A stretch of DNA of 64,000 nt, taken from the NCBI GenBank assembly GCA_038747915.1, contig JBCDJJ010000003.1, forward strand, positions 19,740 through 83,739, read 5' to 3'. The notes below the pieces were generated by a model, which ran no database searches, was not told the DNA's origin, and was given only the letters and a program-made list of their open reading frames with translations. Shown one piece after another: positions 23,889-42,272 of the stretch. Source of the DNA: Planctomycetota bacterium. GTDB taxonomy: Bacteria; Planctomycetota; Phycisphaerae; Phycisphaerales; UBA1924. Both the position numbers and the translations under genes were made by a program. Position 1 is the first letter of the stretch. Every line of letters starts with the position of its first letter.

Positions 23889-23944
23889 GGACGGCGACGA
23901 TCGCGCGCGGTTGTTCGGTTCTCCCCGCCGTGCCGCCGCGCTCC

Positions 23945-23977
23945 CCGACGGAGCCTGCGCTCCGCACACTCCGTCGG
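23945..23977 (+). terminator. Hairpin downstream of gvpA (candidate attenuator/partial terminator)
   Basis: 9-bp inverted repeat CCGACGGAG ... CTCCGTCGG with a 15-nt loop, followed by CGTTCGTCC. A gvpA-proximal attenuator would fit the usual excess of GvpA transcript (inference). Confidence 0.25.
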
Positions 23978-24009
23978 CGTTCGTCCCCGCACCCATCGGC
24001 GAGCCTCGC

Positions 24010-24786: not shown

Positions 24787-24810
24787 TCCTGTGGCAAAGG
24801 GACAGACACG

Positions 24811-25662
24811 ATGAGCACCGACACCGGATCATCGCGCAACCCGGACCTCTCACGCCGGGTTGCTGACCTGCTCGCCGAGGCACGCCAGGCCCGGCTGGCC
24901 GCGAGCCGTCTCGCCTCCAACGCGCGCCGCGAGGCGCTCGCTGCGATTCGCGAGGAGGTGAGCACAATCCGCTCAGCGAGCGCCGAGGCACTCGCTCGTC
25001 CGGCCACGGAGGCGGTGCCGACAACGGACACGATCGATGTGCCGGTTGACCAAGAGGCCCCGTCGTCTGCGTTGTCAGACGATGTGAGCTCGCCGATCGC
25101 TGGTGAGGATGCAGCCGTTGAGCACGAGGCATCGACGCCTGAAGCGCCCGCGATCCTCGACCCACCTGCGGCGATCGAGTCACCCGCGGTCCCCGAGACG
25201 CCCACTATCCCTGAGTCACCCGCGGTCTCCGAGGCGCCTGTGGTTGCCGAAGCGCCCGCGGCATCCGCGGTACCGACACCGGTCTCCGGGCCGGTTCCGC
25301 CGGCCGAGACACCCGTCGAGCGTGAGGTGTCATCGCCGGAGCCTCCCACACCGCCGGCGTTGCCGGCGCGTGCAGCGAGCGCGCCTTCCGGCGAATCACC
25401 GCCATCAGAAGATCTCAGGGATGAGACCATCTGGGCACTTCCCGAGGTCGCGCCTATCCCGATGAACGCGTCCGCACCATCGCGGCACGCGTCGCCACCT
25501 GTTGCCGCAAACGATTCCCCCGCGCCCAAGACGCCGGCCTCGTCCGAAGATGCGCCGACGGATCCGGGCGCGATCCCATCGCCGCAGACGCTGCCCCCGC
25601 CGTCGGGCCCGTCGGTAATGCCCGCCCCGCCGGCGACGCTTCCACCGATGAAGCGCGCATGA
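24811..25662 (+). CDS. Pro/Ala/Glu-rich low-complexity protein with an N-terminal helical domain paralogous to 24010..24786
   Basis: N-terminus VADLLAEARQARLAASRLASNARREALAAIREEVSTIRS is homologous to the neighbour. It is followed by PESPAVPETPTIPESPAVSEAPVVAEAPA-type repeats. Confidence 0.55.
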   Translation: MSTDTGSSRNPDLSRRVADLLAEARQARLAASRLASNARREALAAIREEVSTIRSASAEALARPATEAVPTTDTIDVPVDQEAPSSALSDDVSSPIAGEDAAVEHEASTPEAPAILDPPAAIESPAVPETPTIPESPAVSEAPVVAEAPAASAVPTPVSGPVPPAETPVEREVSSPEPPTPPALPARAASAPSGESPPSEDLRDETIWALPEVAPIPMNASAPSRHASPPVAANDSPAPKTPASSEDAPTDPGAIPSPQTLPPPSGPSVMPAPPATLPPMKRA

Positions 25663-25805
25663 TGCAGGCAGCGGAGCGCGGCGCCCCCCGCTTTGGGCGG
25701 GAGCCCCGCACAGCCGGATCATGATCGAGCCCGAAGTGAAGACGTTTGGATGAAGCGTCGCGGCGCCGCTCCACTTGTGCCGGTCCGCTGCCGATAACGG
25801 TCGCC

Positions 25806-26795
25806 ATGACCAACGTCGAATCCGAATCCGCGGTCCGGCGCACCCACGCCATCGAGTTCGAGGCCTCCGAGGACTTCGTGCTCACCGCCGAGGTGCAGGC
25901 GATCACCGAGCGAGCCCTGGCGTACCTTGCGGCGGGCTACGGCATTCATCTCGCGGGCCCGGCTGGAACGGGAAAGACAACGCTCGCGTTTCATATCGCG
26001 GCGCAGCTCGGCAACCCGATCACGCTCGTGCACGGCAATGATGAGTTCGGCAGCTCCGACCTCGTCGGCCGTGACACGGGCTACGCGCGCTCGAGCGTGG
26101 TCGACAACTTCATCCACTCGGTGCTCAAGACCGAGGAGCGGGTTGACATCGCCTGGTCGGACAATCGGCTGACCACCTGCTGCGAGCAGGGGCACACGCT
26201 GGTGTACGACGAGTTCAACCGGACGAGCCCCGAGGCCAACAACATCCTGCTGAGCGTGCTCGAGGAGGGCATTCTCGATCTCCCGCGGTCCGACGGCGGC
26301 GAGCAGTACCTCGAGGTGCACCCGAACTTTCGTTGCATCCTGACATCTAATCCTGAGGAGTACGCCGGTGTACATCGGACGCAGGATGCGCTGCTCGACC
26401 GTGTCGTGACGCTCGATGTCGGTCATTACGATGAGGAGACCGAGACGCGGATCACCGCGGCCAAATCAAATCTGGACCTTGTTGATGCGGCCACCATTGT
26501 GGAGTTGGTCCGCACCATGCGGCAGGTGGGCGAGAGCCCGACACGCCCGACGATCCGGGCCGCCATCGCGATCGCACGTGTGTGCGCTGCCAGGGGGGCC
26601 AGCATCGATGCACACGACCGGTTCTTCCGCGCGGTCTGTCATGATGTGCTGCTCGGCGCACTGCGCACGGGCGGGTCCGGCCGCGGGGTGACCGCGAAGA
26701 AACTCGATGAGCTGATCGATCTCGTGCGGCAGGCTCGGGCGGTGGCCCCGCCGAAGCGGCTCGAGCGCACGGAGGCACGCGATGCGGCGGCATGA
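25806..26795 (+). CDS. gvpN: Gas vesicle protein GvpN (AAA+ ATPase)
   Basis: Walker A GPAGTGKTTLAFHIAAQLGNPITLVHGNDEFGSSDLVGRDTGY. GvpN/CbbQ-type AAA. Confidence 0.85.
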   Translation: MTNVESESAVRRTHAIEFEASEDFVLTAEVQAITERALAYLAAGYGIHLAGPAGTGKTTLAFHIAAQLGNPITLVHGNDEFGSSDLVGRDTGYARSSVVDNFIHSVLKTEERVDIAWSDNRLTTCCEQGHTLVYDEFNRTSPEANNILLSVLEEGILDLPRSDGGEQYLEVHPNFRCILTSNPEEYAGVHRTQDALLDRVVTLDVGHYDEETETRITAAKSNLDLVDAATIVELVRTMRQVGESPTRPTIRAAIAIARVCAARGASIDAHDRFFRAVCHDVLLGALRTGGSGRGVTAKKLDELIDLVRQARAVAPPKRLERTEARDAAA

Positions 26796-26825
26796 GTCGA
26801 CGCGATCGCCCCAAGGACGCCTGGC

Positions 26826-27152
26826 ATGAGCGGACCACCACGCGGACTCAACTCGATCAAGACAGCGGCGGGCGCCCGCGGCCGCGGTGCGCGTCTCTCG
26901 TCGATCTACTCGCGCATCCTGACGCTCGAACTCGAGCACGAGCGGCGCGCCATGGAGCGAGAGAACGCCATGCGCCGCGTGAGTTCCGCGGAGATCCGTA
27001 TGAAGCGGATCGAGGCCGAACTCGCGGCCCTTCGCGACCTCGCCGACAGCGCGGCCCGTGACACGGACGCGGCAGACCTTCGTACAGCGGAGATCCGCGA
27101 TGTCAAGCCTGTTGTGATGACCAAGCCCGATCGCGTCCGCCACCGGTACTGA
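26826..27152 (+). CDS. Hypothetical coiled-coil protein (GvpO-position)
   Basis: 108 aa, charged and helical: ELEHERRAMERENAMRRVSSAEIRMKRIEAELAALRDLAD. AAGGA SD 7 nt upstream. Confidence 0.45.
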   Translation: MSGPPRGLNSIKTAAGARGRGARLSSIYSRILTLELEHERRAMERENAMRRVSSAEIRMKRIEAELAALRDLADSAARDTDAADLRTAEIRDVKPVVMTKPDRVRHRY

Positions 27153-27169
27153 ACACGAGAGCGAACCAC

Positions 27170-27487
27170 ATGAAGATCAACTGCATCCACTGCGGGCACA
27201 ACTTCTCGATCGATGCCGCGTACGACGACTACGAGGGTCTCGTCCGGTGTTCGACGTGTGGGGGCTTGCTCGAGATCAAGACATCCAGCGGTGCGTTGCG
27301 CGCCGTTCGCCCCGGCGCCATCCATGGCTCGGCACAACATGCGCCCGCCGAGACATCAACGACCGATCCCGAGGTTGAGCAGATGCGCCGTGAACTCGAG
27401 CGTCTGACGGCGGAGGTCCGCGAGGCGGCAGCGGAGGCGGTCCCGGCTCCCGAGTCGCCGTCGGGCCGTGCGGTCAAGCCGCTCTAA
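27170..27487 (+). CDS. Zinc-ribbon protein
   Basis: 105 aa, with CxxC...CxxC: MKINCIHCGHNF...VRCSTCGGLLEI. Confidence 0.5.
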   Translation: MKINCIHCGHNFSIDAAYDDYEGLVRCSTCGGLLEIKTSSGALRAVRPGAIHGSAQHAPAETSTTDPEVEQMRRELERLTAEVREAAAEAVPAPESPSGRAVKPL

Positions 27488-27536
27488 TGTGATTCATGAA
27501 CTGGCAGGTCACCCCAGCGAGTACGAGCGAGAACCG

Positions 27537-28364
27537 ATGAGCGACGAATTGCATGGCCTGTACTTCTACGGCATCGCACGCGGCGCCACCGTGGCTGAGC
27601 AACTCGCTGGGGCGCCGAGCGGCCTCGACGGGCGCCCGGTGTTCGCGGTTGTTGCGGGCGCACTCGCAGCGATCGTCAGCCTTGCGCCGGATGGCCGTCT
27701 CCGCCCGCAGCGTCGGGCGCTCGGCGCCCATCAGAGCGTGCTCAAGCACATCGGTGCACGCGGGCCAGCTCTGCCGGCATCGTTCGGCGTGATCGCGCCG
27801 AGCAGCGGGGGGCTCGCAGCGGTGCTGCGGGCCAATGCGGACACACTCGACGAGCAGCTCACAGAGACCGCGGGGTGTGTCGAGATGGGTGTGAAGCTCC
27901 GATGGGACGTCGACAACGTATTCGCCGACTTCGTCGATCGGTACGAGGTGCTCCGTGAGGCGCGCGTGGGTATCGCTGAGGGAGCGGCCAGCCGGGACGA
28001 ACTCATCGAGATCGGTCAGTTGTTCGAGCGGCTACAGGGCACCGAGCGCGACGAGGCACTCGCTGCGGTCCGTGGCACGATCGACACGGCCGCGCGCCGG
28101 GTCGTCGCCAACCCGCCGCGAAGCGAGAACGAGGTGCTGAACATCGCGTGCCTGGTTGAGCGCGACCGCGAAGACGGATTCGATGCAGCGGTGCAGCGGG
28201 CCGCGGAGTCGTTCGATGAACGGTTCGCCTTCGAGATTAGTGGGCCATGGCCGCCGTTCAACTTCGTCTCCCTCCGTCTCGAGTTCGATCACGATGCCTC
28301 GGGCGACGAGGCGGCGTTCGAGGTGATCGGTGAGCCGCACGTCGAAGTGAGCGAGGCCGCCTGA
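27537..28364 (+). CDS. gvpF: Gas vesicle protein GvpF/GvpL family
   Basis: LYFYGIARG...HQSVLKHI...PASFGVIAP, the GvpL_GvpF fold signature. Confidence 0.8.
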   Translation: MSDELHGLYFYGIARGATVAEQLAGAPSGLDGRPVFAVVAGALAAIVSLAPDGRLRPQRRALGAHQSVLKHIGARGPALPASFGVIAPSSGGLAAVLRANADTLDEQLTETAGCVEMGVKLRWDVDNVFADFVDRYEVLREARVGIAEGAASRDELIEIGQLFERLQGTERDEALAAVRGTIDTAARRVVANPPRSENEVLNIACLVERDREDGFDAAVQRAAESFDERFAFEISGPWPPFNFVSLRLEFDHDASGDEAAFEVIGEPHVEVSEAA

Positions 28365-28594
28365 TGTTCATCGTCGACGACATCCTGTTCTCTCCCGCGA
28401 AGGGCTTCATGTGGATCATGCGCGAGCTGCACAAGGCGGCGAGTCAGGAGCTCGAGTCCGAGGCGGACCGCATTACAGCGGAGCTCTCGAGTCTGTACAT
28501 GCGGCTCGAGACCGGTGAGATCACCGAGGACGAGTTCGACGAGCGCGAGACCGAGCTGCTCGACCGCCTAGACGAGCTGCAGGCAGAGGAGTAG
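28364..28594 (+). CDS. gvpG: Gas vesicle protein GvpG
   Basis: MFIVDDILFSPAKGFMWIMRELHKAA. Its start overlaps the stop of gvpF (TGATG). Confidence 0.75.
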   Translation: MFIVDDILFSPAKGFMWIMRELHKAASQELESEADRITAELSSLYMRLETGEITEDEFDERETELLDRLDELQAEE

Positions 28595-28599
28595 GCACG

Positions 28600-30582
28600 A
28601 TGTCGAGGGATGCCGGGCGACCCCCGCGATTCATCGAAGACGATCGGCTCGCGATGCTCCTGTTCGGTGGCAAGGGTGGTGTCGGCAAGACGACCTCCGC
28701 TTGCGCCGCAGCGGTGCGCCTCGCGATGGATCGTCCTCAGACGAGCGTCACGCTCATCTCCACCGATCCGGCGCACAGCACGAGCGATTGCCTCGGCGAT
28801 ACGGACGATCTTCCAGAGAACCTCGAGCTTGTCGAGCTTGATTCGGCTGCGGAGCAGGCTGCATTTATCTCCGAGCACGCGGATCAGCTGCGTGAGATCG
28901 CACTCCGCGGCACGTTCTTCGATGAGGAGGATGTCGACACATTCCTCGAACTCGCGGTGCCGGGTGCGGATGAGCTGATGGCGTTCCTGACACTGGCGCA
29001 CCACGCGGAGCGCATCGAGAACTCGCCGGGAGAGCCACGCGTGGTCGTGGTCGACACCGCCCCGACCGGCCACACGCTCCGGCTGCTCGCGATGCCCGAT
29101 CTGGTCGATCGATGGCTCGGCGCACTCGATGCCTTGCTCGCCAAGCACCGGTTCATGGCTTCGGCGTTCGGGTCAACGGGTGTGGATGAGGTCGAGCTGT
29201 TCCTTGCTCGGGTGACCGGGCAGGCCGAGTGCTTTGGCCGATTGTTGCGTGACGGTTCACGGTGTCAGTTCGTGCCGGTGTTCACACCCGAATCGCTCGC
29301 GGTGGCCGAGACGAATCGCTTAGTGACCGAACTCGAGCGGCTGGGCGTGGCATGCGACGAGGCGGTGCTGAACCGGCTTGTGCCGTCAGGTGAAGGCGAC
29401 CTTGGCGAAGCGATTCGCGCCGCGCAGCATCGCCAGCTCTCGGCGCTCGATGATTCGGTGCTCTGCCTCGACATCTGGGGACTGCCGGTGGCCCCGAGCG
29501 AGCCTGTGGGTCGGGCAGCACTTGCATCGTTGTGGGACCCGGGGCTTGCACCGGGCGGCATCACCGCGTGGCTTGCGAGCGATGTCGAACACGAGCCCGC
29601 GGAGGCACCGCGCGTCATGCAGGGCCGCGCATTGTCGCTTGATCCCAAGCGTCGGCTGCTGCTCGTGGCGGGTAAGGGCGGGGTGGGGAAGACGACGGTC
29701 GCATGCGCCGCGGCGATGGCCCTTGCTGCGGCGCGAAAGAAGGGCGATGTGCTCGTCGTCTCAACGGACCCTGCGCACTCGGTGGGTGATTGCTACGGCG
29801 TGTCGCTCACCGGGGAGCCGATCGAGATCGTGCCGCGCCTGCGAGCGATGGAGATCGACGCCGAGGCAGAGTTTGATCGGTTCCGTGAGCAGTACGAGCA
29901 GGAGATCGACGCGGCCCTCGGCTCCCTGATCGAGGGGGGCGACCTGACGTTCGATCGCGAGGCGATGTCTCGACTCGTGGATCTCGCGCCGCCGGGCATC
30001 GATGAGCTGATGGCCCTCGTACGCATCATCGACGAGCTCGACGGGGTCGTCGGCCGCACCATCGTGTTCGATACCGCGCCGACCGGGCACCTGCTCCGCC
30101 TGCTCGAGACGCCGGAGCTGGTCGAGTCGTGGCTAGCCGGCGTCTTCAAGCTCATGCTGAAGTACGAGTCGGTCGTTCGGGTCCCCCGGTTGCGTGATCG
30201 GTTGATCGAGCTGAGCAAGGGGATCAAGTCCGTGCGCACGATGCTGGGCACCGCAAAGTCGTCGTCACTCGTCGCGGTTTCCATCCCCACAAGACTGGCG
30301 GTCGAGGAGCTGAGCGATCTCGCACTCGCGATCCGTTCCATGGGTGTGGCCTTGGCGGGGGTGGTGATCAACCGGTGTACACCGGATGGTGGGGGTGTCA
30401 TCCTGAGCGGACAGGCCGAGGCGGAGCGCCACTGGATCGAGGTGGCCCGACGTGCGGTGCCGGATGCTGCACCGATATGCCTTACATGGGGGGGTGAGCC
30501 GGTGGGGATCGAGCGCCTTGGTGCGCTCGGGCGCGAACTCTTTGCTGTGCACCGTGGTGGTCTGCTTTCCTCAGCCGCATGA
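28600..30582 (+). CDS. Tandem two-domain ArsA/Get3-like P-loop ATPase embedded in the gvp cluster
   Basis: Two halves, each with a deviant Walker A GKGGVGKTT (LLFGGKGGVGKTTSACAAAV and LLVAGKGGVGKTTVACAAAM) and the ArsA/Get3 switch motif DTAPTGHT (twice). Confidence 0.85.
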   Translation: MSRDAGRPPRFIEDDRLAMLLFGGKGGVGKTTSACAAAVRLAMDRPQTSVTLISTDPAHSTSDCLGDTDDLPENLELVELDSAAEQAAFISEHADQLREIALRGTFFDEEDVDTFLELAVPGADELMAFLTLAHHAERIENSPGEPRVVVVDTAPTGHTLRLLAMPDLVDRWLGALDALLAKHRFMASAFGSTGVDEVELFLARVTGQAECFGRLLRDGSRCQFVPVFTPESLAVAETNRLVTELERLGVACDEAVLNRLVPSGEGDLGEAIRAAQHRQLSALDDSVLCLDIWGLPVAPSEPVGRAALASLWDPGLAPGGITAWLASDVEHEPAEAPRVMQGRALSLDPKRRLLLVAGKGGVGKTTVACAAAMALAAARKKGDVLVVSTDPAHSVGDCYGVSLTGEPIEIVPRLRAMEIDAEAEFDRFREQYEQEIDAALGSLIEGGDLTFDREAMSRLVDLAPPGIDELMALVRIIDELDGVVGRTIVFDTAPTGHLLRLLETPELVESWLAGVFKLMLKYESVVRVPRLRDRLIELSKGIKSVRTMLGTAKSSSLVAVSIPTRLAVEELSDLALAIRSMGVALAGVVINRCTPDGGGVILSGQAEAERHWIEVARRAVPDAAPICLTWGGEPVGIERLGALGRELFAVHRGGLLSSAA

Positions 30583-30640
30583 CGAGCCGATAACCGCTAT
30601 CGATCGGTCCCGTGTTGTCGTCCTTTGGGAGTTCGTCTCG

Positions 30641-30874
30641 ATGCCGCGCACGCGTCTTCACCAAGTAGCTCGTTCGTCCGGGAGGGCGCGGTGTATCGAG
30701 CCGCAGGAGACGATCCTGTGCGACGCGCTTGACCGTGTGCTCAGTGTCGGTGTGGCGGCGCGTGGCGACCTCGTGATCGCTGTGGCGGATGTGCCGCTGA
30801 TCAAGCTGAGCCTGGGTGTGTTGCTGGCCTCGGTCGAGACCGCCGAGGGCCGGATCGAGAGGGGGACACGATGA
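30641..30874 (+). CDS. Small GvpA-family protein (GvpS/GvpM-like), not called in the ORF track as a separate gene
   Basis: 77 aa: ILCDALDRVLSVGVAARGDLVIAVADVPLIKLSLGVLLASVETAEG matches the GvpA/J/M/S core (LxxxLDRxLxxGVxxxGDxxIxxxxVxLxxLxLxxxxASVE). ATGA overlap with the gvpK start. Confidence 0.6.
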   Translation: MPRTRLHQVARSSGRARCIEPQETILCDALDRVLSVGVAARGDLVIAVADVPLIKLSLGVLLASVETAEGRIERGTR

Positions 30875-31218
30875 CCCGATGCCCGACCGAACTCGAACCG
30901 CTGCTCTCGGCGCTGGAAGACGTGACCGCGGTGGACGACTCCGAGGCGGATGCCTCGCCGCGGCTCAACGTCGACCCCGCGGATGTGAAAAAGGGGCTCG
31001 GTCAGCTCGTGCTGACCGTGGTCCGGCTGCTGCACGAGCTGCTCGAGCGTCAGGCGATCCGTCGGATCGAGTCGGGCTCGCTGACCGATGACGAGGCCGA
31101 CCGACTCGGCACGACGATGAAGCTCCAAGCCGAGGAGATCGAGAAGCTCGCCGGCTACTTCGGGCTGCGCACCGAAGATCTGAACATGGACCTCGGCCCC
31201 CTCGGCAAGTTGATGTAA
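30871..31218 (+). CDS. gvpK: Gas vesicle protein GvpK
   Basis: GLGQLVLTVVRLLHELLERQAIRRIESGSLTDDEADRLG. Confidence 0.85.
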   Translation: MTRCPTELEPLLSALEDVTAVDDSEADASPRLNVDPADVKKGLGQLVLTVVRLLHELLERQAIRRIESGSLTDDEADRLGTTMKLQAEEIEKLAGYFGLRTEDLNMDLGPLGKLM

Positions 31219-31228
31219 GGCGCGTGCG

Positions 31229-31621
31229 ATGGCGATTCAGCAGGGTGGCCCGACCCACCTGAGCACAACCAACATCGCGGACCTACTCGAGCGTGTGCTC
31301 GACAAGGGTGTGGTCATCGCGGGTGATGTCAAGCTCAAGCTGCTCGACATTGAACTTCTCACGATTCAGCTCCGTTTGGTGGTGTGCTCGGTCGACAAGG
31401 CGCAGCAGATGGGCATCGACTGGTGGTCGCAGACCAAATCGCTGTGCGCACCGGAGGAGACACCACCGATCGAGGCGGGTACAGAGGCCGAGACCAAGCC
31501 CGCGCTGCCGTCGCCCGAAGAGCACGAGGCGCTGCAGCAACGAGTGGAGGAGCTTCAACAGCAACTCGAGCAGATCCAAACCGAGCAGCAGACCCCCTGG
31601 CGGAGACCCAAGACCCCATGA
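31229..31621 (+). CDS. gvpJ: Gas vesicle protein GvpJ (GvpA family)
   Basis: LADLLERVLDKGVVIAGDVKLKLLDIELLTIQLRLVVCSVDKAQQMGIDWW. Confidence 0.85.
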   Translation: MAIQQGGPTHLSTTNIADLLERVLDKGVVIAGDVKLKLLDIELLTIQLRLVVCSVDKAQQMGIDWWSQTKSLCAPEETPPIEAGTEAETKPALPSPEEHEALQQRVEELQQQLEQIQTEQQTPWRRPKTP

Positions 31622-32247
31622 TCGCCCGTGAGGCGCCCGGAGAGCGCCGACTCGTTGTCATCCCGATGCTGCACACCGAGACGGACCTCGGCGAGCTATC
31701 AGACCGTGTTCGGCGTGAGACCGTCGCCCATGCCGGTCGACGAGCGTGGGAGCGCAAGCAGCGTGCGATCGAGCGGCTATGGAGCGAGATCACCGAATGG
31801 TCGGAGCGTGTTGCGATCCCTGAGGCCGGCATGCGGCTCTACCAGGATGGTCTGCCGGTCTGCGGACCGGGCGAGCGCGATGTCACGCGCACCATCGTGG
31901 AGGATCTCGGTACACGCGGGAGCCTGAACCATCGCATCCTGCTGAGTCTCATCGAGCGCGGGGCGACGCTCGAGGGCACCGAGTCGCCAGAGTTGCTGCT
32001 CGCCGAGTATCGCTTGGCCCGGGGCGAGGCGGAGCAGGATGGTGATGGCACCCCCGCTGCGCACGATCTGCTCGAGCAACGTGACCGGTTCATCGCGCAG
32101 CGCATCGATGCCACGCTCGAGCCTCACCAGGTCGGCGTGCTGTTCATCGGGTATTTGCACAACATCCCGCCGCACCTGCCCGCAGGCATCACGGTCGAGC
32201 ACCCCTTCGACGTTGCCGAGGCCCTCAGCCAAGGAGCACACGCATGA
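31618..32247 (+). CDS. Hypothetical gvp-cluster protein
   Basis: 209 aa, coupled by ATGA overlaps to gvpJ upstream and hsp20 downstream. No recognised motif. Confidence 0.5.
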   Translation: MIAREAPGERRLVVIPMLHTETDLGELSDRVRRETVAHAGRRAWERKQRAIERLWSEITEWSERVAIPEAGMRLYQDGLPVCGPGERDVTRTIVEDLGTRGSLNHRILLSLIERGATLEGTESPELLLAEYRLARGEAEQDGDGTPAAHDLLEQRDRFIAQRIDATLEPHQVGVLFIGYLHNIPPHLPAGITVEHPFDVAEALSQGAHA

Positions 32248-32780
32248 GCACCGCCAACACCCCACCCGGATCGTCCGGCCACCCGTCGGGCGGCCAGCCC
32301 GCAGGGTTCCTTGATGGTCTAACTCGGCTGCTTCACACGATCGGCGAGCTCGCGGACAAGGGTGCCGAGCTGAAAGAGTCCGGACTGTTCGAGACAGAGT
32401 CGGGCAAGCAGGGCCGCGTGAACGTCGGCTTCTCGATCCGCACCGCGGGGACCGGTCAACCGGGCGAGGGCGGGCTCAAGGTCGAGCCGTTTGGCAACGT
32501 GCGGCGCAACCGCGAGACGGGCGAGGCGGAACTCGCTGCGGTGCGCGAACCGATCGTCGATGTGTTCGACGAGGAGGGCGAAGCGCTGCGTGTGGTGGCC
32601 GAACTGCCCGGTATCGATGAGAGCCAGGTGACTCTCCGCGCCGATGGGCGCACGCTCGTGCTCGAGGCCGAGGATGGCTCGAAGCGCTACCACGCCGAGG
32701 TCGAGCTCCCCCGCGAGGTGCGCGTGGAGGAGGCATCGATCTCGTGCAATAACGGGATCGCGGAGATCACCTTTTCTTGA
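32244..32780 (+). CDS. Hsp20/alpha-crystallin family protein (GvpH-like position)
   Basis: ACD: ALRVVAELPGIDESQVTLRADGRTLVLEAE...YHAEVELPREV...GIAEITF. AAGGAG SD. Confidence 0.85.
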   Translation: MSTANTPPGSSGHPSGGQPAGFLDGLTRLLHTIGELADKGAELKESGLFETESGKQGRVNVGFSIRTAGTGQPGEGGLKVEPFGNVRRNRETGEAELAAVREPIVDVFDEEGEALRVVAELPGIDESQVTLRADGRTLVLEAEDGSKRYHAEVELPREVRVEEASISCNNGIAEITFS

Positions 32781-32816
32781 GCGTGTGGACCACGCCTGTA
32801 TCACGATGAGTCGGAG

Positions 32817-34979
32817 ATGCGCCGGATGATCCGCAAGAGCCCTCCCGCAGCCGAGCTGACCCGCCGGGTCGCCGAGGCCCAGCCGAAGGATGTTGGCCGC
32901 GCCATCGCGCGCCTCGATCCCTCGGATCTGCGTGAGCTCGGTCTCGCGACGGGCGACACCGTCGAGGTGGTCGGTGCGCGGACGACCGTGTGCCGAGCGC
33001 TGCCGACACGGAAGTCCGACCGGTCCGCCGGCTCGGTTCACATCGATGGGATGACGCGCGAGAACGCGCGCGTCGGTGTCGATGCGGAGGTGGCGATTCG
33101 GCCGGTGCCGTGCCCACGGGCCGAGCGTGTGGTTCTTGAGCCAGAGGCCCGCCGCCCCGATGGGAAGGAGCTGGCGTACATCGCATCGCTGCTCGATGGG
33201 CTGCCGGTTTCGTCTGGTGACCGCGTGCGGGTGAACACCTTCGGTAATCGCCCGATGCACTTCCGTGTGAAGCGCACGATGCCGGATACGGCGTGCGTCG
33301 TCGCCTCGAGCACCGCGCTGGAACTCGTGGGCGGGTCATCGAGTAGCAGCCGAGCGAAGCGGGACGCACCCGCTGCAACGCCGGCGAGCGTCTCGTACGA
33401 GGATGTCGGTGGTCTGGGCAAGCAGGTGCATCGCATCCGGGAGACGATCGAGCTCCCGCTGCGCTTCCCCGAGGTGTTCGATCGCTTGGGGATCGATCCG
33501 CCTAAGGGCGTGCTGCTGCACGGCCCGCCCGGGTGCGGCAAGACACTCATCGCCCGCGCGATCGCGCACGAGACCAATGCCAACTTCTTCGTGATCTCCG
33601 GGCCCGAGATCGTACACAAGCACTACGGCGAGTCGGAGGCCAATCTCCGCAAGGTGTGGGCCGAGGCGACGCGTCAGGGTCCATCGATCGTGTTCATCGA
33701 CGAGATCGACTCGATCGCGCCCAAGCGGGAGCAGACACAGGGCGAGGTGGAGAAGCGGATCGTCGCGACGCTTCTTACCTTGATGGACGGGCTCGAAGCC
33801 CGGCGGGGTGTTGTCGTGCTCGCTGCGACTAACCTGCCGAACAACCTCGACCCCGCCCTGCGGCGACCCGGGCGATTTGACCGGGAGATCGAGATCCCGG
33901 TGCCCGACGCGATCGGTCGTGGTGAGATCCTCGATGTGCATACGCGCGGCATGCCGCTCGCGGCCGATGTTGATCTGGATCGAGTCGCCCAGATTACACA
34001 CGGGTGCGTCGGGGCCGATCTCGAGTCACTGTGCCGTGAGGCAGCGATGCACTGTCTCCGCCAGATCATGGGGGAGATCGACTTCGTCACCGGTGATGTG
34101 CCCTACGAGAAGCTCGCCTCGCTCACGGTCTCGATGAACGATTTCGTGGCCGCGTTCGCCGAGGTCACGCCGAGCGCTCTGCGTGAGGTATTCGTCGAGA
34201 CACCGCGTGTGTCGTGGGACGATGTCGGCGGTCTCGAGGATGTAAAAGCCAAACTGGTTGAATCGGTCGACTGGCCCGTGCGGCACGCAGCACTCTTTGA
34301 AGAGGCGAAGCTCCGTCCACCCCGCGGTGTGATGCTCGCCGGCCCTCCGGGTGTGGGGAAGACGCTGATCGCCAAGGCCACCGCGAGCCAGCTCGGCGCC
34401 AACTTCATCTCGGTGAAAGGCCCGGAGCTGCTGTCGCAGTTTGTGGGCGAGTCGGAGCGAGCGATGCGCGAGGTGTTCCGAAAGGCGCGGCTGGCCTCGC
34501 CATGTGTGATTTTCCTTGACGAGGCGGATGCGCTGCTGCCTAAACGCTCCGGTTCAGCGACCGATGGCGGCGTGCGCGAGCGTGTGGCGGCTCAATTCCT
34601 CACGGAGATGGACGGCATCGAGGAGCTGCGCGGCGTGCTTGTGCTCGCGGCGACGAATCGGCTGGACATCATCGATCCTGCGGCGCTCCGGCCGGGACGG
34701 TTCGATCACGTGATCGAGCTCGGCCTGCCGACACCGGTCGATCGCGAACGCATCTTCGCGGTCCATCTGCGCGATCGCCCGACGGGCACGGCAGTCACAG
34801 CTGAAGTGCTGGCGGAGCTCGCCGGCGATGTGAGCGGAGCAGAGATCGCGGGTGTGTGCGACCGGGCCGCGATGCTCGCGGTGCGAGACAGCGTGTCGGG
34901 CGGTGCCCCGATCCGAATGACGCTCGAACACTTCCGGGGCGCAATGCGCGACATCCTCGGCGTGGAGATCGAATCATGA
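32817..34979 (+). CDS. CDC48/VAT-type AAA+ ATPase (N-domain plus D1 and D2)
   Basis: CDC48 N-domain TRRVAEAQPKDVGRAIARLDPSDLRELGLATGDTVEVVG. Two Walker A motifs, GPPGCGKTLIARAIAHE and GPPGVGKTLIAKATAS, plus two second-region-of-homology segments. Confidence 0.85.
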   Translation: MRRMIRKSPPAAELTRRVAEAQPKDVGRAIARLDPSDLRELGLATGDTVEVVGARTTVCRALPTRKSDRSAGSVHIDGMTRENARVGVDAEVAIRPVPCPRAERVVLEPEARRPDGKELAYIASLLDGLPVSSGDRVRVNTFGNRPMHFRVKRTMPDTACVVASSTALELVGGSSSSSRAKRDAPAATPASVSYEDVGGLGKQVHRIRETIELPLRFPEVFDRLGIDPPKGVLLHGPPGCGKTLIARAIAHETNANFFVISGPEIVHKHYGESEANLRKVWAEATRQGPSIVFIDEIDSIAPKREQTQGEVEKRIVATLLTLMDGLEARRGVVVLAATNLPNNLDPALRRPGRFDREIEIPVPDAIGRGEILDVHTRGMPLAADVDLDRVAQITHGCVGADLESLCREAAMHCLRQIMGEIDFVTGDVPYEKLASLTVSMNDFVAAFAEVTPSALREVFVETPRVSWDDVGGLEDVKAKLVESVDWPVRHAALFEEAKLRPPRGVMLAGPPGVGKTLIAKATASQLGANFISVKGPELLSQFVGESERAMREVFRKARLASPCVIFLDEADALLPKRSGSATDGGVRERVAAQFLTEMDGIEELRGVLVLAATNRLDIIDPAALRPGRFDHVIELGLPTPVDRERIFAVHLRDRPTGTAVTAEVLAELAGDVSGAEIAGVCDRAAMLAVRDSVSGGAPIRMTLEHFRGAMRDILGVEIES

Positions 34980-35806
34980 ACCAATCTGGTGGTCCTGCCG
35001 TCAAGTCGCGGTTTGCGGTCGAGCCCAAGCCGGAGTCGTCGCCGTCGCCTATCTACGCAGCGGCGCTGCTACCGCCGGATGCGCCCGCGATCGAGGCACC
35101 GGGGATCGAGCAAGGCCTGACGCTCCGCACGGTGGAGATCGGCGGGTGGTGTGCGTTTGCAGGTGTGGTTGGCCTCTCGATGTTCATGGGCGACGACGCC
35201 GAGCAACGGCTCCAAGACCCTGCGTGGCTCACCCCGCGTGCGATCGCGCACGAGCGGGCACTGCTCGAGGCCCGGACACACGTCGACCTGCTCCCGCTCC
35301 CATTCGGCACGGTGTTCCACTCGCTCGACTCGCTCGCAGACCGGTGCGATCGTCACGCCGAGGTACTCGCCGACTTCTTCGCCAGAACCTGCGGCGCCTC
35401 CGAATGGTGCATCAAGGTGACAGCGAGCCGGCGTGACGCGATCGAGCACGAGGTCGAGTCGCGTTTAAACCTCGAAGTCGGGGCCGAGGCGAGCGGCGCC
35501 GCGTACCTCCGCGCTCAGGCACGTCGCCGCGCGATCGAGACCGAGGTGCTCCACGATCTCTCGGCCTTCGCCGATGAACAGGCCGACCGGCTCGATGCGA
35601 TCGCTCGCGATAGCTCGGATCGGCGTCAGACATCGGGAGAGCCCGACATCGAGACACTCGCGCACTGGGCATTCCTTGTCGATCGCCGCGAGAGCGAGCG
35701 GGTGTCCGAGCTCACGCGAGAGATCAACCACGGTGCGCCCTCCGGCGTGCGTTTCGATCTCGCGGGCCCGTTCCCGCCGTACAGCTTCACCCCACGGTTG
35801 AGCTGA
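34976..35806 (+). CDS. Gas vesicle protein GvpF/GvpL family (second copy)
   Basis: WLTPRAIAHERALLEARTHVDLLPLPFGTVFHSL. ATGA overlap with the cdc48-like stop. Confidence 0.75.
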   Translation: MNQSGGPAVKSRFAVEPKPESSPSPIYAAALLPPDAPAIEAPGIEQGLTLRTVEIGGWCAFAGVVGLSMFMGDDAEQRLQDPAWLTPRAIAHERALLEARTHVDLLPLPFGTVFHSLDSLADRCDRHAEVLADFFARTCGASEWCIKVTASRRDAIEHEVESRLNLEVGAEASGAAYLRAQARRRAIETEVLHDLSAFADEQADRLDAIARDSSDRRQTSGEPDIETLAHWAFLVDRRESERVSELTREINHGAPSGVRFDLAGPFPPYSFTPRLS

Positions 35807-35944: not shown

Positions 35945-36349
35945 TCAGCCGGCGACTTTGACGAAGATCCAGTTCGTCTTACTGGCCGGATCGCGGTAGA
36001 GGTGGATGTTGACCGCGGTGGGCTTCATCTTGAAGGTGAAGGTGTAGGGGAAGGCGAGGTTGAGCTGATCGGCGGCGACGCCCTTCTTGAACGAGCCGAA
36101 GAAGAGGCCGTTGTTCGAGCAGGGGGCGACCTGGGTGAAGAAGTTGCGGCCCTCGGCCTGGCTGGCGGGGATGCCAGCGAGGTTCTGCTCGTACTGGTTG
36201 TAAAGCAGGATCTTGCCGGCTTCGTCGGTCTTGATGATCCCGAAGTCGTAGCCGTCCGCGTCGCCGCGGGAGAGGTTTCCGAGTCGAGAGAACAGTTCGT
36301 CGGGGACAAAGGTGCCGTTCTGGCTGGCGGTGTTCATCATGACGCTCAT
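35945..36349 (-). CDS. pyp: Photoactive yellow protein (PAS-domain blue-light photoreceptor)
   Basis: FGIIKTDEAGKILLYNQYEQNLAGIPASQAEGRNFFTQVAPCSNNGLFFGSFKKGVAADQLNLAFPYTFTFKMKPTAVNIHLYRDPASKTNWIFVKV. It has the NFF..VAPC chromophore-Cys motif and close colinearity with Halorhodospira PYP. Confidence 0.85.
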   Translation of the reverse strand: MSVMMNTASQNGTFVPDELFSRLGNLSRGDADGYDFGIIKTDEAGKILLYNQYEQNLAGIPASQAEGRNFFTQVAPCSNNGLFFGSFKKGVAADQLNLAFPYTFTFKMKPTAVNIHLYRDPASKTNWIFVKVAG

Positions 36350-36690
36350 TCGTGTGCTCCTTGATTCAGATGCTCTTTCCATTCGGCCCGCATGACGGGC
36401 TTGTCGTCCACGATCTCGAGCGAGATCGACTTCTCGGAGAACTGCGCATCCAGGTGCTCAGCGAGCTGATTCACCTGCACGAGCAGGGCGGCGGCGGTCG
36501 ATCCGTCGGCATCGGCGATGCCTCCGAATCGCTGGTAGAGGTCGCAGAGCTGCGCCTCCAGACTACGGACCATGTTGAGAATCCCGTCGGCATCGCACAC
36601 ACCGATCTGGCTCGCGAGCTGCTCACGCTCGGCGTAGATCGATTCGAGCTGGTGCAGCGTGCCGCCGGTCTCGTTGCTGATGTTCTGCAT
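36346..36690 (-). CDS. Hypothetical protein co-operonic with pyp
   Basis: 114 aa. Its stop overlaps the pyp start by 4 nt. No recognisable domain. Confidence 0.5.
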   Translation of the reverse strand: MQNISNETGGTLHQLESIYAEREQLASQIGVCDADGILNMVRSLEAQLCDLYQRFGGIADADGSTAAALLVQVNQLAEHLDAQFSEKSISLEIVDDKPVMRAEWKEHLNQGAHE

Positions 36691-36723: not shown

Positions 36724-37134
36724 TCAGGCGGCCTTGGCCCGATCCACTCGGTCGGAGATGAACGTGACGATCGTGTCAACGTCTTCCGGATCCGCGTGCT
36801 GCTCGACCACGTCGATCAGCACACTGATCCCCGAACCACGGAGCATGGACGGCTGGTCGGGCTGACCAGTCCGGAACATCGCGTAGTTCATCTTGGTGTT
36901 CAGGCCCATCCACTGGGTCTTGAAATCGATGAAGTAGGAGGCCGCGATCGAGCGGTGCTCCTCCTCCTCGTCCGTCGACTGGAGATCATGCACGACCTTG
37001 TCACGAAGGCTGTTCACCCACTGACGGGTCTCGCTGATCGCGCCCGAGTCGAATCCTTCCACTTCGATGGCGCCGTTCACGCGCTCATCGAAGGTTGCAG
37101 CGTTGAGCTGCTCAATCAAGCTACTTGCGTTCAT
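36724..37134 (-). CDS. Hypothetical protein, first gene of the pyp operon
   Basis: 136 aa, acidic. No recognisable domain. Confidence 0.5.
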   Translation of the reverse strand: MNASSLIEQLNAATFDERVNGAIEVEGFDSGAISETRQWVNSLRDKVVHDLQSTDEEEEHRSIAASYFIDFKTQWMGLNTKMNYAMFRTGQPDQPSMLRGSGISVLIDVVEQHADPEDVDTIVTFISDRVDRAKAA

Positions 37135-37405
37135 GGGGCTTCTCCGATGGGTTGGCTCACCACAGGACTGAGGAGTTGGTCGGTCGAGGCGCCTCGCTCG
37201 TTCATCTCAACGACAACCCTTCATGCAAATCGATGTAAATCCCCAAGGACCGGGGAGCACCCGTATGCCGTCGCGCACCGATCGACCGGCAATCGAACCA
37301 CGGAGCACGAAGCACACCGTGAAGGGTCGCTTCCTCTCATCGAGCGCACCCGAGAGGCCGATAGCACAGACGCGCACGCCGGGCGACGAGACGCGAGTGA
37401 CCGAG

Positions 37406-38848
37406 ATGCCACCCAAAGCTATCTGCACCCACGAGGTCATCCGTGAGCGGCTCTACAACTCGCTTACGTCGAGCCCGGCGCCGGTCTTCTTCTTCGGTGA
37501 GAGCGCCATCCCCGGGCCGTCGATCTGGACCGCAGCGCGGAAGTGGGTGTCGATGTTCCGGCACCTCGGCGTGGCGCCGGGCGAGCGCGTCGTGCTCTCC
37601 CTTGATCCGGGGCCAGGGTTTCTCGCAGCACTCGTCGCTGGAATCTGGGAGGAGTTCACGCTCGTGCTCCCGGGCTTCGGTGATCGGCCGGAAGAAGTCG
37701 CCGACGAGACCAAGGCCCGCCTGATCCTCGACGAGGAGACCACCGCCGGGCGTCCGGGCACCGTCACGCAGATGCCCTTGTTCGTGACCGAACCCACTCC
37801 CGCTGCACGGTTTCTACTCCGATCGAGCGGCACGAGCGGTCGCTCGGACCGCTTCGTCGCGCTCTCGAACGAGAACATCCTGGCGGTGGCTGAGAGCCAC
37901 CAGTACGCCGTCCCGCCCGAGGGTAGCGTGGCGCTCTCGCTCCTCCCCTGGAACCACGCCTTCGGGCTGGTGCTCGAGCTGCTCCCGGCGCTCTGGTCGA
38001 CCACCATGTTCGTGCGCACACAGGATGCCGCGCGTGACCCAGCCATCGCGCTCGAATGGTCGAACAGGTTTGATGTCCGGTGGGCAAACATGGTGCCGCT
38101 GCAGGCGGCGCGGCTCGCCGCGTCATCGGGCGGGCTCGCATGGCTGCGTGGGCTCGACGGCGGCATCGTTGGTGGAGCGCCCGTCGATGGTGCGCTCGCC
38201 GATGTGCTCGCGACCACCAAGCTCCGTCCCGGGTACGGTCAGACCGAGGCATCACCGGGCATCACGCTCGGCGAGCCCGGCGAGTGGGGGGACCGGTGCA
38301 TCGGTCAGCCGGTCGGGTGCGAGACAGAGATCACACCAGATGGTGAACTCGTCGTGACGGGACCGAACGTCTGCCTTGGTGTGTGGGAACACGGGGCCCT
38401 GACCGAGTTCGATCCCAATCGCGCACTGCACACAGGCGATCTCGTCGAGCGTCTGCCCTCGGGCTCACTCGCCTTCGTGGGTCGGACCGATCATCGCTTC
38501 AAGCTGTCCAACGGCCGGTTGGTGGACGCACCGGCGCTCGAGCGCGACCTCGACGGCGTGGTGCTGCTGCCGGATGAGGGCGGCGCCGGCGTTGTCCTGG
38601 CCCTCGAGCCCGGGGCCGACGCCGGGCCCGATGTGCTGGAGTATCTCGGACGCATCCCAGCACGCACGATTCGGCTTGCCGAGGCGGCGCCCAGAACACG
38701 AAAGGGTGAGATCGATCGCCGAGCGCTCCAAGAGCGCATCCGATCCAACGACACACCACGGAGCACGCATGATCCCAGCGAGCACGCGTCCAACGACACG
38801 CCGGCCGATCTCGGTGACGCCACCATCGACTCACGCCGAGCCGCCTGA
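37406..38848 (+). CDS. pcl: AMP-dependent synthetase/ligase; candidate 4-coumarate-CoA ligase for PYP chromophore activation
   Basis: AMP-binding motif LLRSSGTSGRSDRFVALS. Position beside pyp and the ammonia-lyase mirrors pyp-pcl-tal clusters. Confidence 0.7.
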   Translation: MPPKAICTHEVIRERLYNSLTSSPAPVFFFGESAIPGPSIWTAARKWVSMFRHLGVAPGERVVLSLDPGPGFLAALVAGIWEEFTLVLPGFGDRPEEVADETKARLILDEETTAGRPGTVTQMPLFVTEPTPAARFLLRSSGTSGRSDRFVALSNENILAVAESHQYAVPPEGSVALSLLPWNHAFGLVLELLPALWSTTMFVRTQDAARDPAIALEWSNRFDVRWANMVPLQAARLAASSGGLAWLRGLDGGIVGGAPVDGALADVLATTKLRPGYGQTEASPGITLGEPGEWGDRCIGQPVGCETEITPDGELVVTGPNVCLGVWEHGALTEFDPNRALHTGDLVERLPSGSLAFVGRTDHRFKLSNGRLVDAPALERDLDGVVLLPDEGGAGVVLALEPGADAGPDVLEYLGRIPARTIRLAEAAPRTRKGEIDRRALQERIRSNDTPRSTHDPSEHASNDTPADLGDATIDSRRAA

Positions 38849-40358
38849 AGATGGCCTGCTCCAGCTCGGCCCGGATCACAGGCTGTACCCCGAGGATGTC
38901 GTCGCGGCGTCGTACCAAGCTCGACCGGCGCTCTGTCTAAGCGAGGCAGCAACCCAGGCGATCATCAGCGCGCACGCGGCGCTCGAACGGCTGGTCGAGC
39001 AGGGTCGCGAGATCTACGGCCTCACGACTGGCTTTGGACCCTTCGTCGCGTGCCGTGCCTCGACCGATCCAAGCCGCCAGGGGCTCGGGCTGATCAATCA
39101 CCTCGCCTCGGGGTGGGGTGACCCGGCACCAGCCGAGATCGTTCGAGCCGCGATGATTCTCCGTGCCCAGACCGTCGCGCAAGGCTTCTCTGGCATCGAG
39201 CCGAGGGTCGCTGAGGCGTTCGTCGAGCTGATCACAGCCGGTGTGGCGCCGGCGGTCCCGGAGATCGGGAGCGTTGGCGCGTCGGGCGACCTCATCCCCC
39301 TCGCCCACGTCGTGCAGTGCCTGGCGGGTCGTGGCGAGGCGCTCGATGCCGAGGATGCACTCGTCCCAGCGGCGAAGGCCCTTGCCAGTGCTGGGCTCGA
39401 ACCGACCGAACTCGGCGCCCGCGATGCGCTCTCGCTCGTCAACGGCACCGCGTTCATGACCGCCTACGCGGTCCACGCACTGATCGCTGCGGAACGGGTG
39501 CTCGATCGCGCCGAAGAACTCACCGCGTGGATCTACCGCCTCTTCGCCGCCCGAACCCAACCGCTCGACGACCGCTTGCACTCGGCCCGCGGGCACGCCG
39601 GGCAGCGCGCCGCTGCAGCACGGATCACCGGGCACATCGATGCGCACGGCGGCGTCGTCCCCGATGAGCACAGACCGCTCCAAGAGGTGTATTCCGTGCG
39701 GTGCGCACCCCAGTGGCTGGGCGCGGCCCGCGAGCAGTTGGCCCACGCACGCCGACTCATCGAGGTCGAGATCAACGGTATCTCAGACAACCCGGTGGTC
39801 ATCGCTGCGAACCACGCGCACGGCACGTCCGACGATGTGATCCATGGCGGCAACTTCCAGGGCACGCAGATCGCCTTCGCCACCGACGCGATCAACACCG
39901 CGCTGGTGCATACCGCGTTGCTCGCCGAGCGCCAGATCGACGTGCTGAGCAATCCCGAACTCAATATGGGCGCGCCGCTCCTGCTTGCCCGAGAGCCCGG
40001 GCCTGATGCGGGCATCGCGGGCGTACAGATCACCGCCACGGCGCTCGTCGCCGAGATGCGGCTCGGCGCGCAGCCCGCAGCGATCGCCTCGATCCCGACC
40101 AACGGGCGAAACCAGGATGTGGTCAGCATGGGCACCGTCGCGGCACGGAACGCGCACGCACAGGTCGATCGGGCAGCCGGCGTGCTCGCTGCGTGCGCAC
40201 TCGCCGCCGCGCAGCTCGACCATCGCCGACGCACAGGGCTCGCACCCGGCCCGTCGGCCGATGGGCCACGCTGGGCCGAGGTCTACACGCCGTTCGAGGC
40301 CGATCGTCCAACGCGTCGAGACCTCCAGAGGCTGTCCCAAGCGATCCTGACCGATTGA
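38769..40358 (+). CDS. tal: Aromatic amino-acid ammonia-lyase (HAL/TAL family); candidate tyrosine ammonia-lyase
   Basis: MIO-forming triad GSVGASGDLIPLAHV, plus IYGLTTGFG and NGTAFMTAYA. Start uncertain: an in-frame GTG at 38816 is an alternative, and the ORF overlaps the pcl 3' end. Confidence 0.8.
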   Translation: MIPASTRPTTRRPISVTPPSTHAEPPEDGLLQLGPDHRLYPEDVVAASYQARPALCLSEAATQAIISAHAALERLVEQGREIYGLTTGFGPFVACRASTDPSRQGLGLINHLASGWGDPAPAEIVRAAMILRAQTVAQGFSGIEPRVAEAFVELITAGVAPAVPEIGSVGASGDLIPLAHVVQCLAGRGEALDAEDALVPAAKALASAGLEPTELGARDALSLVNGTAFMTAYAVHALIAAERVLDRAEELTAWIYRLFAARTQPLDDRLHSARGHAGQRAAAARITGHIDAHGGVVPDEHRPLQEVYSVRCAPQWLGAAREQLAHARRLIEVEINGISDNPVVIAANHAHGTSDDVIHGGNFQGTQIAFATDAINTALVHTALLAERQIDVLSNPELNMGAPLLLAREPGPDAGIAGVQITATALVAEMRLGAQPAAIASIPTNGRNQDVVSMGTVAARNAHAQVDRAAGVLAACALAAAQLDHRRRTGLAPGPSADGPRWAEVYTPFEADRPTRRDLQRLSQAILTD

Positions 40359-40409
40359 CCAACCGGGAAGCTGTGAATCCACCGAGAAACCGTCACGAAG
40401 TATATCAAT

Positions 40410-41729: not shown

Positions 41730-42272
41730 TCAGCCCCCAAGCCTCGCGAGCATGTCGTCGCACCATTGGATCGTTGCGCGGCAGAGGCGATCACCAAGTT
41801 CCGCGGTCATCAGCCGTTGCGCAGCAGAAAAAGCTGAGGCATCTTCGGTCCTGAGCCGGTGCTGAATCGACTGTAGACGATCCAGGCCCTCAATATGATG
41901 CTCTCGATACGCTCGAATATGGCTGACGAGCGAGTCGCGATCTTGGTGGCCGCCAAAGAAGATCTTCATGGCGAATTCGTTGCGGGTCAGAGTCGGCGCG
42001 AAGTCCTGTGCAAGCCAGTCGCGGAGGTGCTCGAGACCGCGTGCTGTCGGCTTCATGACTCTTCGCGAGGGATGATCGCCATCCGACCCCGCCTGTTCCC
42101 GAATCAGTCCTTCTCCCTCGAGACGATGGAGCGTGGGGTAGATCGATCCAAAGCTCTCATTCCAGAACATTCCAACTGAACTCTGGATTCGCTCGCGTAG
42201 GTCGTAGCCGGACATCGGCTCGATAGAGAGCCAGCCGAGGATCGCATATCTGGTCGCAGATGGCCGCGGCAT
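41730..42272 (-). CDS. PadR family transcriptional regulator
   Basis: TRYAILGWLSIEPMSGYDLRERIQ...SIYPTLHRLEGEGLI winged helix. Confidence 0.8.
   Translation of the reverse strand: MPRPSATRYAILGWLSIEPMSGYDLRERIQSSVGMFWNESFGSIYPTLHRLEGEGLIREQAGSDGDHPSRRVMKPTARGLEHLRDWLAQDFAPTLTRNEFAMKIFFGGHQDRDSLVSHIRAYREHHIEGLDRLQSIQHRLRTEDASAFSAAQRLMTAELGDRLCRATIQWCDDMLARLGG

Follow-up and report, generated by a model that had tools for sequence, protein, structure and literature searches.

Does the bacterium that encodes photoactive yellow protein (PYP) in the stretch of DNA analysed here also encode, beside it, the enzymes that would make and attach its p-coumaroyl chromophore? The stretch, hereafter the window, is 64,000 nt of a contig from a Planctomycetota metagenome-assembled genome (MAG), with a GC content of 65%. 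The question is raised by two overlapping genes, pcl and tal, encoding an adenylate-forming ligase and an aromatic amino acid lyase, which lie divergent from a minus-strand operon of the order ORF136, ORF114 and, as third gene, pyp. An earlier interpretation made from the sequence alone (the sequence-only reading) had taken pcl and tal for a PYP chromophore pathway. The active-site residues of the lyase, the ANL motifs of the ligase, the linkage of both to pyp and natural fusions of the two all agree with this, and we consider it very probable that the pair provides the PYP encoded next to it with its p-coumaroyl group. Direct reading of the DNA and the listing of open reading frames (ORFs) likewise agree on both genes and their motifs, and the divergent pyp operon is real; the interval between the operons measures 271 nt, not the 272 nt given before. 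Coordinates are collected in Table 1.

The lyase, the ligase and their linkage to pyp

The product of tal matches the aromatic lyase family in Pfam (Lyase_aromatic, PF00221; E = 4e-136) over profile positions 3-451 of 466. The Ala-Ser-Gly triad that would form the 4-methylideneimidazole-5-one (MIO) cofactor is present, as the sequence-only reading had noted, in the protein context GSVGASGDL. The top match in the PDB is the tyrosine ammonia-lyase (TAL) of Rhodobacter sphaeroides (RsTAL; 2o6y, E = 9e-79), with the histidine ammonia-lyase (HAL) of Pseudomonas putida behind it (E = 5e-68). The choice between tyrosine and histidine had been left to the substrate-selectivity residue, which we therefore read from the alignment. 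The window lyase reads LINHLASGWG where RsTAL reads LVHHLASGVG (NHLASG against HHLASG in 2o6y), that is, a TAL-like His followed by Leu at the selectivity switch, in contrast to the Ser-His of P. putida HAL (1gkm, which reads LSHAAG at these columns). Phenylalanine ammonia-lyases have Phe-Leu at the same position.

The agreement with RsTAL extends across the active site. All 15 of the RsTAL residues examined are identical in the window lyase: Tyr60, Phe66, Gly67, His89, Leu90, Ala149-Ser150-Gly151, Leu153, Asn203, Tyr300, Arg303, Asn432, Asn435 and Gln436. The RsTAL numbering was checked against the 2o6y alignment. Because all 15 residues, the His89-Leu90 pair among them, match RsTAL, the lyase reads as a TAL and not as a HAL. 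Beyond the shared MIO triad, active-site residues and switch, the two proteins differ: their identity is moderate, the alignment spans residues 55-526 with gaps, and the window lyase, unlike RsTAL, carries a non-conserved N-terminal extension of about 30 aa that overlaps pcl.

A PYP alignment was scanned against GTDB species genomes, and the best 80 matches gave 79 PYP loci (L numbers below), which do not include Halorhodospira halophila or Rhodobacter and many of which lie on short contigs. Homologues at these loci were called by tblastn of the window proteins, and ligases and lyases were counted within 10 kb of pyp. In an alignment of 39 rows, made up of the window TAL, RsTAL and 37 lyases encoded at PYP loci, the His-Leu switch is found in 30 rows (the window and RsTAL included) and Phe-Leu in one. 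A further eight (L022, L026, L028, L029, L037, L046, L047 and L052) combine a Tyr-Leu switch with Glu432 in place of Asn432. This Tyr-Leu clade belongs to Proteobacteria, Bdellovibrionota and Erythrobacter, and its members are paired with a second, shorter type of ligase (EGYGLTEAGPG).

The gene pcl runs from an ATG at 37406 to a TGA at 38846-38848, and its 480-aa product is 100% identical to the NCBI protein of the MAG (P0001), with the same start. It matches the AMP-binding family in Pfam (PF00501; E = 1.4e-20) and carries the A3/P-loop motif SSGTSG reported by the sequence-only reading. Across 120 homologues the family-wide ANL motifs are TSGTTG (the A3 consensus, with its Gly invariant in 120/120), [VL]LPW.HAFGL, GYGQTEASPG and GD...GR.D..FK. 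With SSGTSG, GYGQTE, HTGDL...GRTDHRFK and K433-G434, the window ligase has A3, A7, A8 and the A10-like Lys all in place. One pairwise PDB alignment sets a Glu at the A10 catalytic Lys; loss of this residue was rejected as an alignment artefact because the Lys-Gly pair two residues upstream is kept in 120/120 homologues.

No curated family claims the ligase: its best NCBIfam score is 55 bits against cut-offs of at least 317 bits, the weak matches being to MenE and fatty-acid CoA ligases. The best PDB sequence match (E = 1e-8) covers a partial stretch. Relatives of the ligase, from Planctomycetota, Salinibacter and many metagenomes, share 38-45% identity with it (E = 1e-78 to 1e-104) and bear no more specific name than 'class I adenylate-forming enzyme' or 'acyl-CoA synthetase'. 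An AlphaFold2 model built with 43 sequences (predicted local distance difference test score, pLDDT, 85.4) has the two-domain ANL fold, and its top Foldseek neighbours include feruloyl-CoA synthetase (8wev), 4-coumarate:CoA ligase (5bst) and other aryl-acid or amino-acid adenylating enzymes. The window Pcl shares with 5bst and 8wev the fold (template modelling scores 0.62-0.71), the P-loop, GYGxTE and GD...GR.D..K; it differs in having 20-23% identity to them and an A10 of the form K-G-x-[VIL]-D-R, not the usual S-G-K-I-x-R. The modelled similarity is consistent with a coumarate ligase but does not discriminate among ANL substrates; p-coumarate is the substrate that we infer from the sequence and its setting.

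That setting recurs widely. A homologue of the ligase stands beside pyp, tal or both in 37 of the 79 PYP loci, across many phyla. Ligase and lyase occur together at 28 loci, the ligase only at nine, the lyase only at ten, and neither at 32. In four Armatimonadota/Fimbriimonadaceae loci the two are fused beside pyp as one ORF of about 985 aa, which is a Rosetta-stone link tying the ligase and lyase activities together. The closest relatives (L001-L009, Phycisphaerae/Planctomycetota) have ORF136, ORF114, pyp, pcl and tal all on the same strand, and after them a gas-vesicle cluster in convergent orientation. The pcl-tal block has therefore been rearranged locally in the window, which gives its divergent layout. 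Divergence between pyp and pcl is seen also in two unrelated contigs (L081 and L082), from a check of three randomly picked top Pcl homologues in the protein database, of which two are divergent from a pyp gene.

The intended acceptor would be the product of pyp, which is 38% identical to H. halophila PYP (PDB matches, E = 1e-26) and keeps the equivalents of Tyr42, Glu46 and Cys69 in alignment with it, the last as Cys77 (nt 36121-36119). We propose that TAL deaminates L-tyrosine to trans-p-coumarate by means of an MIO formed autocatalytically from Ala171-Ser172-Gly173. His111, equivalent to His89 of RsTAL, would read the phenolic hydroxyl and so select tyrosine rather than histidine or phenylalanine. 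Pcl, as a member of the ANL superfamily, would then adenylate p-coumarate and transfer it to coenzyme A (CoA). Finally, p-coumaroyl-CoA would acylate Cys77 of apo-PYP, encoded 1 kb away on the opposite strand, to give the blue-light-absorbing holo-protein. What is seen directly is the identity of the genes, their catalytic residues, the gene order and the fusion; the enzyme activities, the start codon of tal, the regulation and the physiological role are deduced from these.

Several points weigh against this assignment. In window PYP, Thr50 is replaced by Ala and Arg52 by Ile, positions at which its clade has mostly Ala and Val, and the protein scores below the TIGR02373 equivalog cut-off (104.7 against 143.05 bits). 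The low score is why NCBI gives it the bland name 'PAS domain-containing protein'; relatives at 66-73% identity are named PYP. No Pcl-specific NCBIfam model matches the window ligase or five other PYP-linked ligases. Identity between the window ligase clade and the second type of PYP-linked ligase, that of Proteobacteria and Bdellovibrio, is only 24-27%, and orthology of the clade to the proven Pcl of H. halophila and R. capsulatus is presumptive. A scan of the 271-nt divergent region for promoters and terminators found neither, sigma-70-like promoters included.

Profile scores also allow the lyase to be read differently. Its top-scoring NCBIfam models are those of HAL (PRK09367, 389 bits; hutH, TIGR01225, 367.2 bits), and these scores, together with the MenE and fatty-acid CoA ligase matches of Pcl, speak for a HAL of histidine catabolism and a generic acyl-CoA ligase lying next to pyp by coincidence. 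Both scores, however, fall under the curated cut-offs (524 bits for PRK09367 and 539.15 for the HutH equivalog), the switch is of the TAL type, and the ligase-lyase pair recurs beside pyp across phyla, to the point of fusion in four loci. The sequence-only reading had named HAL-like switch residues and a hut context in relatives as marks of a HAL; neither is seen, hutU, hutI and hutG being absent from the vicinity of tal and no hut context appearing in the relatives. The coincidental HAL is largely refuted already, and we find it hardly credible.

A TAL and a CoA ligase also feed secondary-metabolite pathways in actinomycetes and Bacteroidota, so the pair might instead make a p-coumaroyl-CoA starter for an aryl polyene, a flavonoid-type polyketide or a similar product, with no role for PYP. 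The FlxA and BagA TAL models do match the lyase, at 282 and 219 bits, but these values lie far under the respective cut-offs of 700 and 1000 bits. Polyketide synthase and aryl-polyene genes were not found within the window region examined, and the conserved partner across the 79 loci is pyp, all of which makes a starter-unit role highly improbable in our estimation. We retain chromophore supply to PYP as the probable function of pcl and tal.

Table 1. Positions of the genes, motifs and other elements discussed, in window coordinates unless a locus is named
Feature	Position	Strand	Remarks
pcl	37406..38848	+	480-aa adenylate-forming (ANL) ligase, inferred p-coumarate:CoA ligase; PF00501
A3/P-loop motif SSGTSG	37823..37840	+	aa 140-145 of Pcl
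A10-like motif KGEIDRR	38702..38722	+	K433-G434 invariant in family
tal	38769..40358	+	529-aa lyase, reads as MIO-dependent tyrosine ammonia-lyase; PF00221
GGAG Shine-Dalgarno sequence for tal	38760..38763	+	5 nt before ATG 38769
Two-frame region of pcl and tal	38769..38848	+	80 nt; Pcl tail aa 455-480, TAL aa 1-27
Selectivity switch His111-Leu112	39099..39104	+	equals RsTAL His89-Leu90; alignment to RsTAL
Ala-Ser-Gly triad forming MIO	39279..39287	+	aa 171-173, within GSVGASGDLIPLAH
Divergent intergenic region ORF136/pcl	37135..37405		271 nt, GC 63%
ORF136	36724..37134	-	first gene of pyp operon; uncharacterised protein, six-helix bundle in model
ORF114	36346..36690	-	uncharacterised protein; TGA stop overlaps pyp ATG
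pyp	35945..36349	-	134-aa photoactive yellow protein, chromophore acceptor
Gas-vesicle gene cluster	23559..35806	+	convergent on pyp
CheA-like protein (HATPase_c + CheW-like)	20880..23537	-	divergent from gvpA
PadR-family regulator (PadR + Vir_act_alpha_C)	41730..42272	-	1.4 kb downstream of tal
Ends of genes for proteins ending in Ala-Ala	20880 (-), 26795, 28364, 30582, 36724 (-), 38848		
Pcl-TAL fusion ORFs	L025:12455-15409, L030:10357-13326, L048:3265-6084, L055:1430-4351		
Long members with ORF136 domain	L025:11020-12519, L046:2940-4397, L069:12043-13473, L037:10431-11867		also proteins P0276, P0295, P0326 and P0342

Overlap of pcl and tal

The sequence-only reading had tal overlapping the 3' end of pcl by about 30-80 nt, implying either translational coupling or a non-ATG start. 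The overlap is real. The tal reading frame is open from 38403 to a stop at 40358, and its only usable starts are an ATG at 38769, which gives an overlap of 80 nt, and a GTG at 38814, which gives 35 nt. Since the conserved lyase core begins at about residue 31 (LQLGPD...), tal cannot start beyond the pcl stop. The most likely start of tal is ATG 38769, served by a GGAG of its own: a GGAGCAC..ATG context also precedes tal in L007 and L008, and the N-terminal length of TAL from this ATG matches that of relatives. The overlap would then most likely be the 80-nt one, in which the first 27 tal codons lie within the last 26 of pcl. With an ATG preceded by a Shine-Dalgarno sequence at hand, a non-ATG start need not be invoked.

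Coupling of tal to pcl translation fares no better, as it is not conserved. In relatives (L001, L003, L004, L007, L008, L009 and L035) a spacer of 12-54 nt separates the tal ATG from the stop of pcl, and tal has its own Shine-Dalgarno sequence; the only overlapping relative is L005, at 203 nt. Judged from these loci, the pcl/tal overlap is lineage-specific and not conserved. An 80-nt overlap is also a poor geometry for termination-reinitiation, and taken with the Shine-Dalgarno sequence of tal it makes independent initiation more plausible than coupling of that kind.

The overlap exists because the Pcl tail is longer than in relatives, extending 48 aa beyond K433, where most of them have 14-28 aa. 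Residues 454-480 fall below a pLDDT of 50 in the AlphaFold2 model, and this lineage-specific, non-conserved tail is predicted to be disordered. RNA structure around the tal start is unremarkable (z = -0.25). A 45-nt duplication was considered as the origin of the tail, but only a 14-nt repeat is seen (TCCAACGACACACC at 38744, and TCCAACGACACGCC, which differs by one mismatch, at 38789), which is too little to conclude from.

The overlap might instead be non-biological, the product of a 1-nt indel between about 38735 and 38768, whether an assembly error or a recent frameshift. Such an indel would have shifted pcl out of a frame ending at TGA 38770-38772, where its stop would overlap the start of tal as a classic ATGA. 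The third frame does hold this TGA, within 'cATGAtc' at 38770; a stop there would leave a tail of 23 aa after K433, within the range of relatives, an ATGA junction is used elsewhere in the locus between ORF114 and pyp, and the source of the sequence is a MAG. On the other side, the extended Pcl tail ends in Ala-Ala, as do 8 of 20 Pcl homologues, and L005 independently shows its 203-nt overlap. GC by codon position across the overlap, read in the pcl frame, is 0.69/0.59/0.74 against a coding pattern of 0.72/0.52/0.81, so that the pcl frame fits slightly better. On balance we think an indel unlikely, though it deserves some weight, and prefer a genuine overlap. The overlap is a curiosity of this lineage and may even be an artefact.

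Known systems and the gas-vesicle neighbourhood

The window locus is an ordinary member of the known pyp-pcl-tal system. About 1000 PYP homologues were surveyed between 2022 and 2025, and knowledge of the pyp-pcl-tal module dates back to the work on H. halophila. The operon and its enzymology are established (PMC12826048; PMC9664959). The H. halophila genes (PMC12826048) cluster the same three functions, namely a PYP with a Cys69 thioester, an AMP-forming ligase and an MIO lyase, and follow the logic proposed for those of the window, from tyrosine through p-coumarate and p-coumaroyl-CoA to holo-PYP. The window differs in that pcl-tal is divergent from pyp rather than downstream of it, in that pyp is the third gene after two uncharacterised genes, and in that the genome is a Planctomycetota MAG. 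Earlier work describes PYP homologues in this phylum (PMC12826048).

According to the surveys, about 30% of pyp genes have pCL nearby and 5-10% have TAL (PMC12826048; PMC9664959); the 2025 survey places TAL in 5% of predicted pyp operons and calls its annotation uncertain (PMC12826048). The window thus adds a clean Planctomycetota case with an unambiguous TAL. Its ligase clade, generically named among the relatives examined, includes the natural Pcl-TAL fusions, which could serve for one-gene production of holo-PYP.

On its other side, the pyp operon faces a convergent gas-vesicle cluster encoding GvpA, GvpN, GvpF/L, an ArsA-like ATPase, a GvpJ-like protein, GvpK, a GvpH-like protein, a CDC48-type double AAA protein and GvpL. 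Linkage of pyp to gvp genes is found in 8 of the 79 loci (L001, L004, L006, L007, L008, L016, L043 and L077), seven of them Planctomycetota (Phycisphaerae) and one Silvanigrellales. A passage in PMC3646047, citing Kyndt 2004, places PYP beside gas-vesicle clusters in Rhodobacter capsulatus and Loktanella. The window belongs to a different phylum and is another instance of PYP against gas-vesicle genes, extending the R. capsulatus link. Because the pyp-pcl-tal unit sits against the gas-vesicle cluster, the system probably serves to place buoyancy under the control of light.

The divergent region and candidate PYP partners

The sequence-only reading had assigned the region between ORF136 and pcl a regulatory role for both operons, which is a reasonable, if purely conjectural, proposal. 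A search of 35500-41500 against Rfam gave no match. In an 8-mer comparison the region has no word in common with the sequences upstream of ORF136 in relatives, apart from GC-rich chance words, and its repeats are short and weak. The sole AT-rich patch is a tandem 10-mer, ATGCAAATCG/ATGTAAATCC, at 37223-37242. No counterpart was found in relatives, and a role as operator or promoter element is conceivable. As p-coumarate is sensed by some PadR proteins, the PadR-family gene downstream of tal was considered as a conserved sensor of this compound. It has no homologue in related PYP loci, and its link to PYP is probably coincidental.

The two genes upstream of pyp have no match in Pfam or NCBIfam. 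The TGA of ORF114 overlaps the pyp ATG (ATGA, 36349-36346), with a GGAG 7 nt upstream. Homologues of ORF114 precede pyp in 27 of the 79 loci, and an ATGA or GTGA junction with an AGGAGA motif is found in ten (L001, L002, L007, L008, L009, L011, L016, L019, L040 and L043). As this junction is kept in ten relatives, the conserved translational coupling at the locus is that of ORF114 to pyp and not of pcl to tal.

ORF136 is modelled by AlphaFold2 as a six-helix bundle (pLDDT 94.6), a fold without a significant match in the PDB, and it matches 387 cluster representatives in a library of 1.8 billion proteins. In long members of the family the ORF136 domain is N-terminal and is followed by HATPase_c and CheW-like domains, an architecture resembling CheA. 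Some of these fusions are encoded beside pyp, tal or pcl in other phyla, and those of about 480 aa that adjoin pyp in L037, L046 and L069 have a CheW-like domain at the C-terminus. A CheA-like protein is encoded in the window too, divergent from gvpA. It has a long acidic N-terminus, and its residues 483-837 match P0276 downstream of the ORF136-like domain of that protein (E = 1e-26). An ORF136-like domain within the window CheA-like protein was sought and is not present (E = 0.23). A CheA-like homologue stands between pyp and gvpA in L043. This arrangement suggests, at the level of sequence, that ORF136 and the CheA-like protein of the window are a split version of the fused architecture.

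ORF136 is therefore a candidate signalling partner of PYP. We tentatively propose, as a possibility somewhat more doubtful than not, that a split relay from PYP through ORF114/ORF136 to the CheA-like protein puts gas-vesicle formation, and with it buoyancy, under blue-light control. A link between the PYP family and CheW has precedent in Ppr (PMC2993699), and R. capsulatus has a 142-aa PYP-binding protein encoded next to pyp. ORF136 was considered as a possible homologue of the latter; look-ups of family members of 141-145 aa gave only the name 'hypothetical protein'. The abstract of the 2025 survey describes the signal-transduction chain of PYP as an open gap (PMC12826048), and small proteins of the ORF114/ORF136 type are not mentioned in two recent PYP surveys, as judged by text search. 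If the proposal is true, the pyp operon may hold long-sought PYP signalling partners, and ORF114, ORF136 and the CheA-like gene would matter much more than pcl and tal.

One further feature is shared across the gvp-pyp region. Six of its roughly 20 proteins (the CheA-like protein, GvpN, GvpF, the ArsA-like ATPase, ORF136 and Pcl) end in Ala-Ala, against none of about 23 proteins outside it. The same ending is found in 15 of 24 ORF136 homologues, besides the Pcl homologues mentioned above, and might act as a C-terminal degron, of the type used by SsrA/ClpXP.

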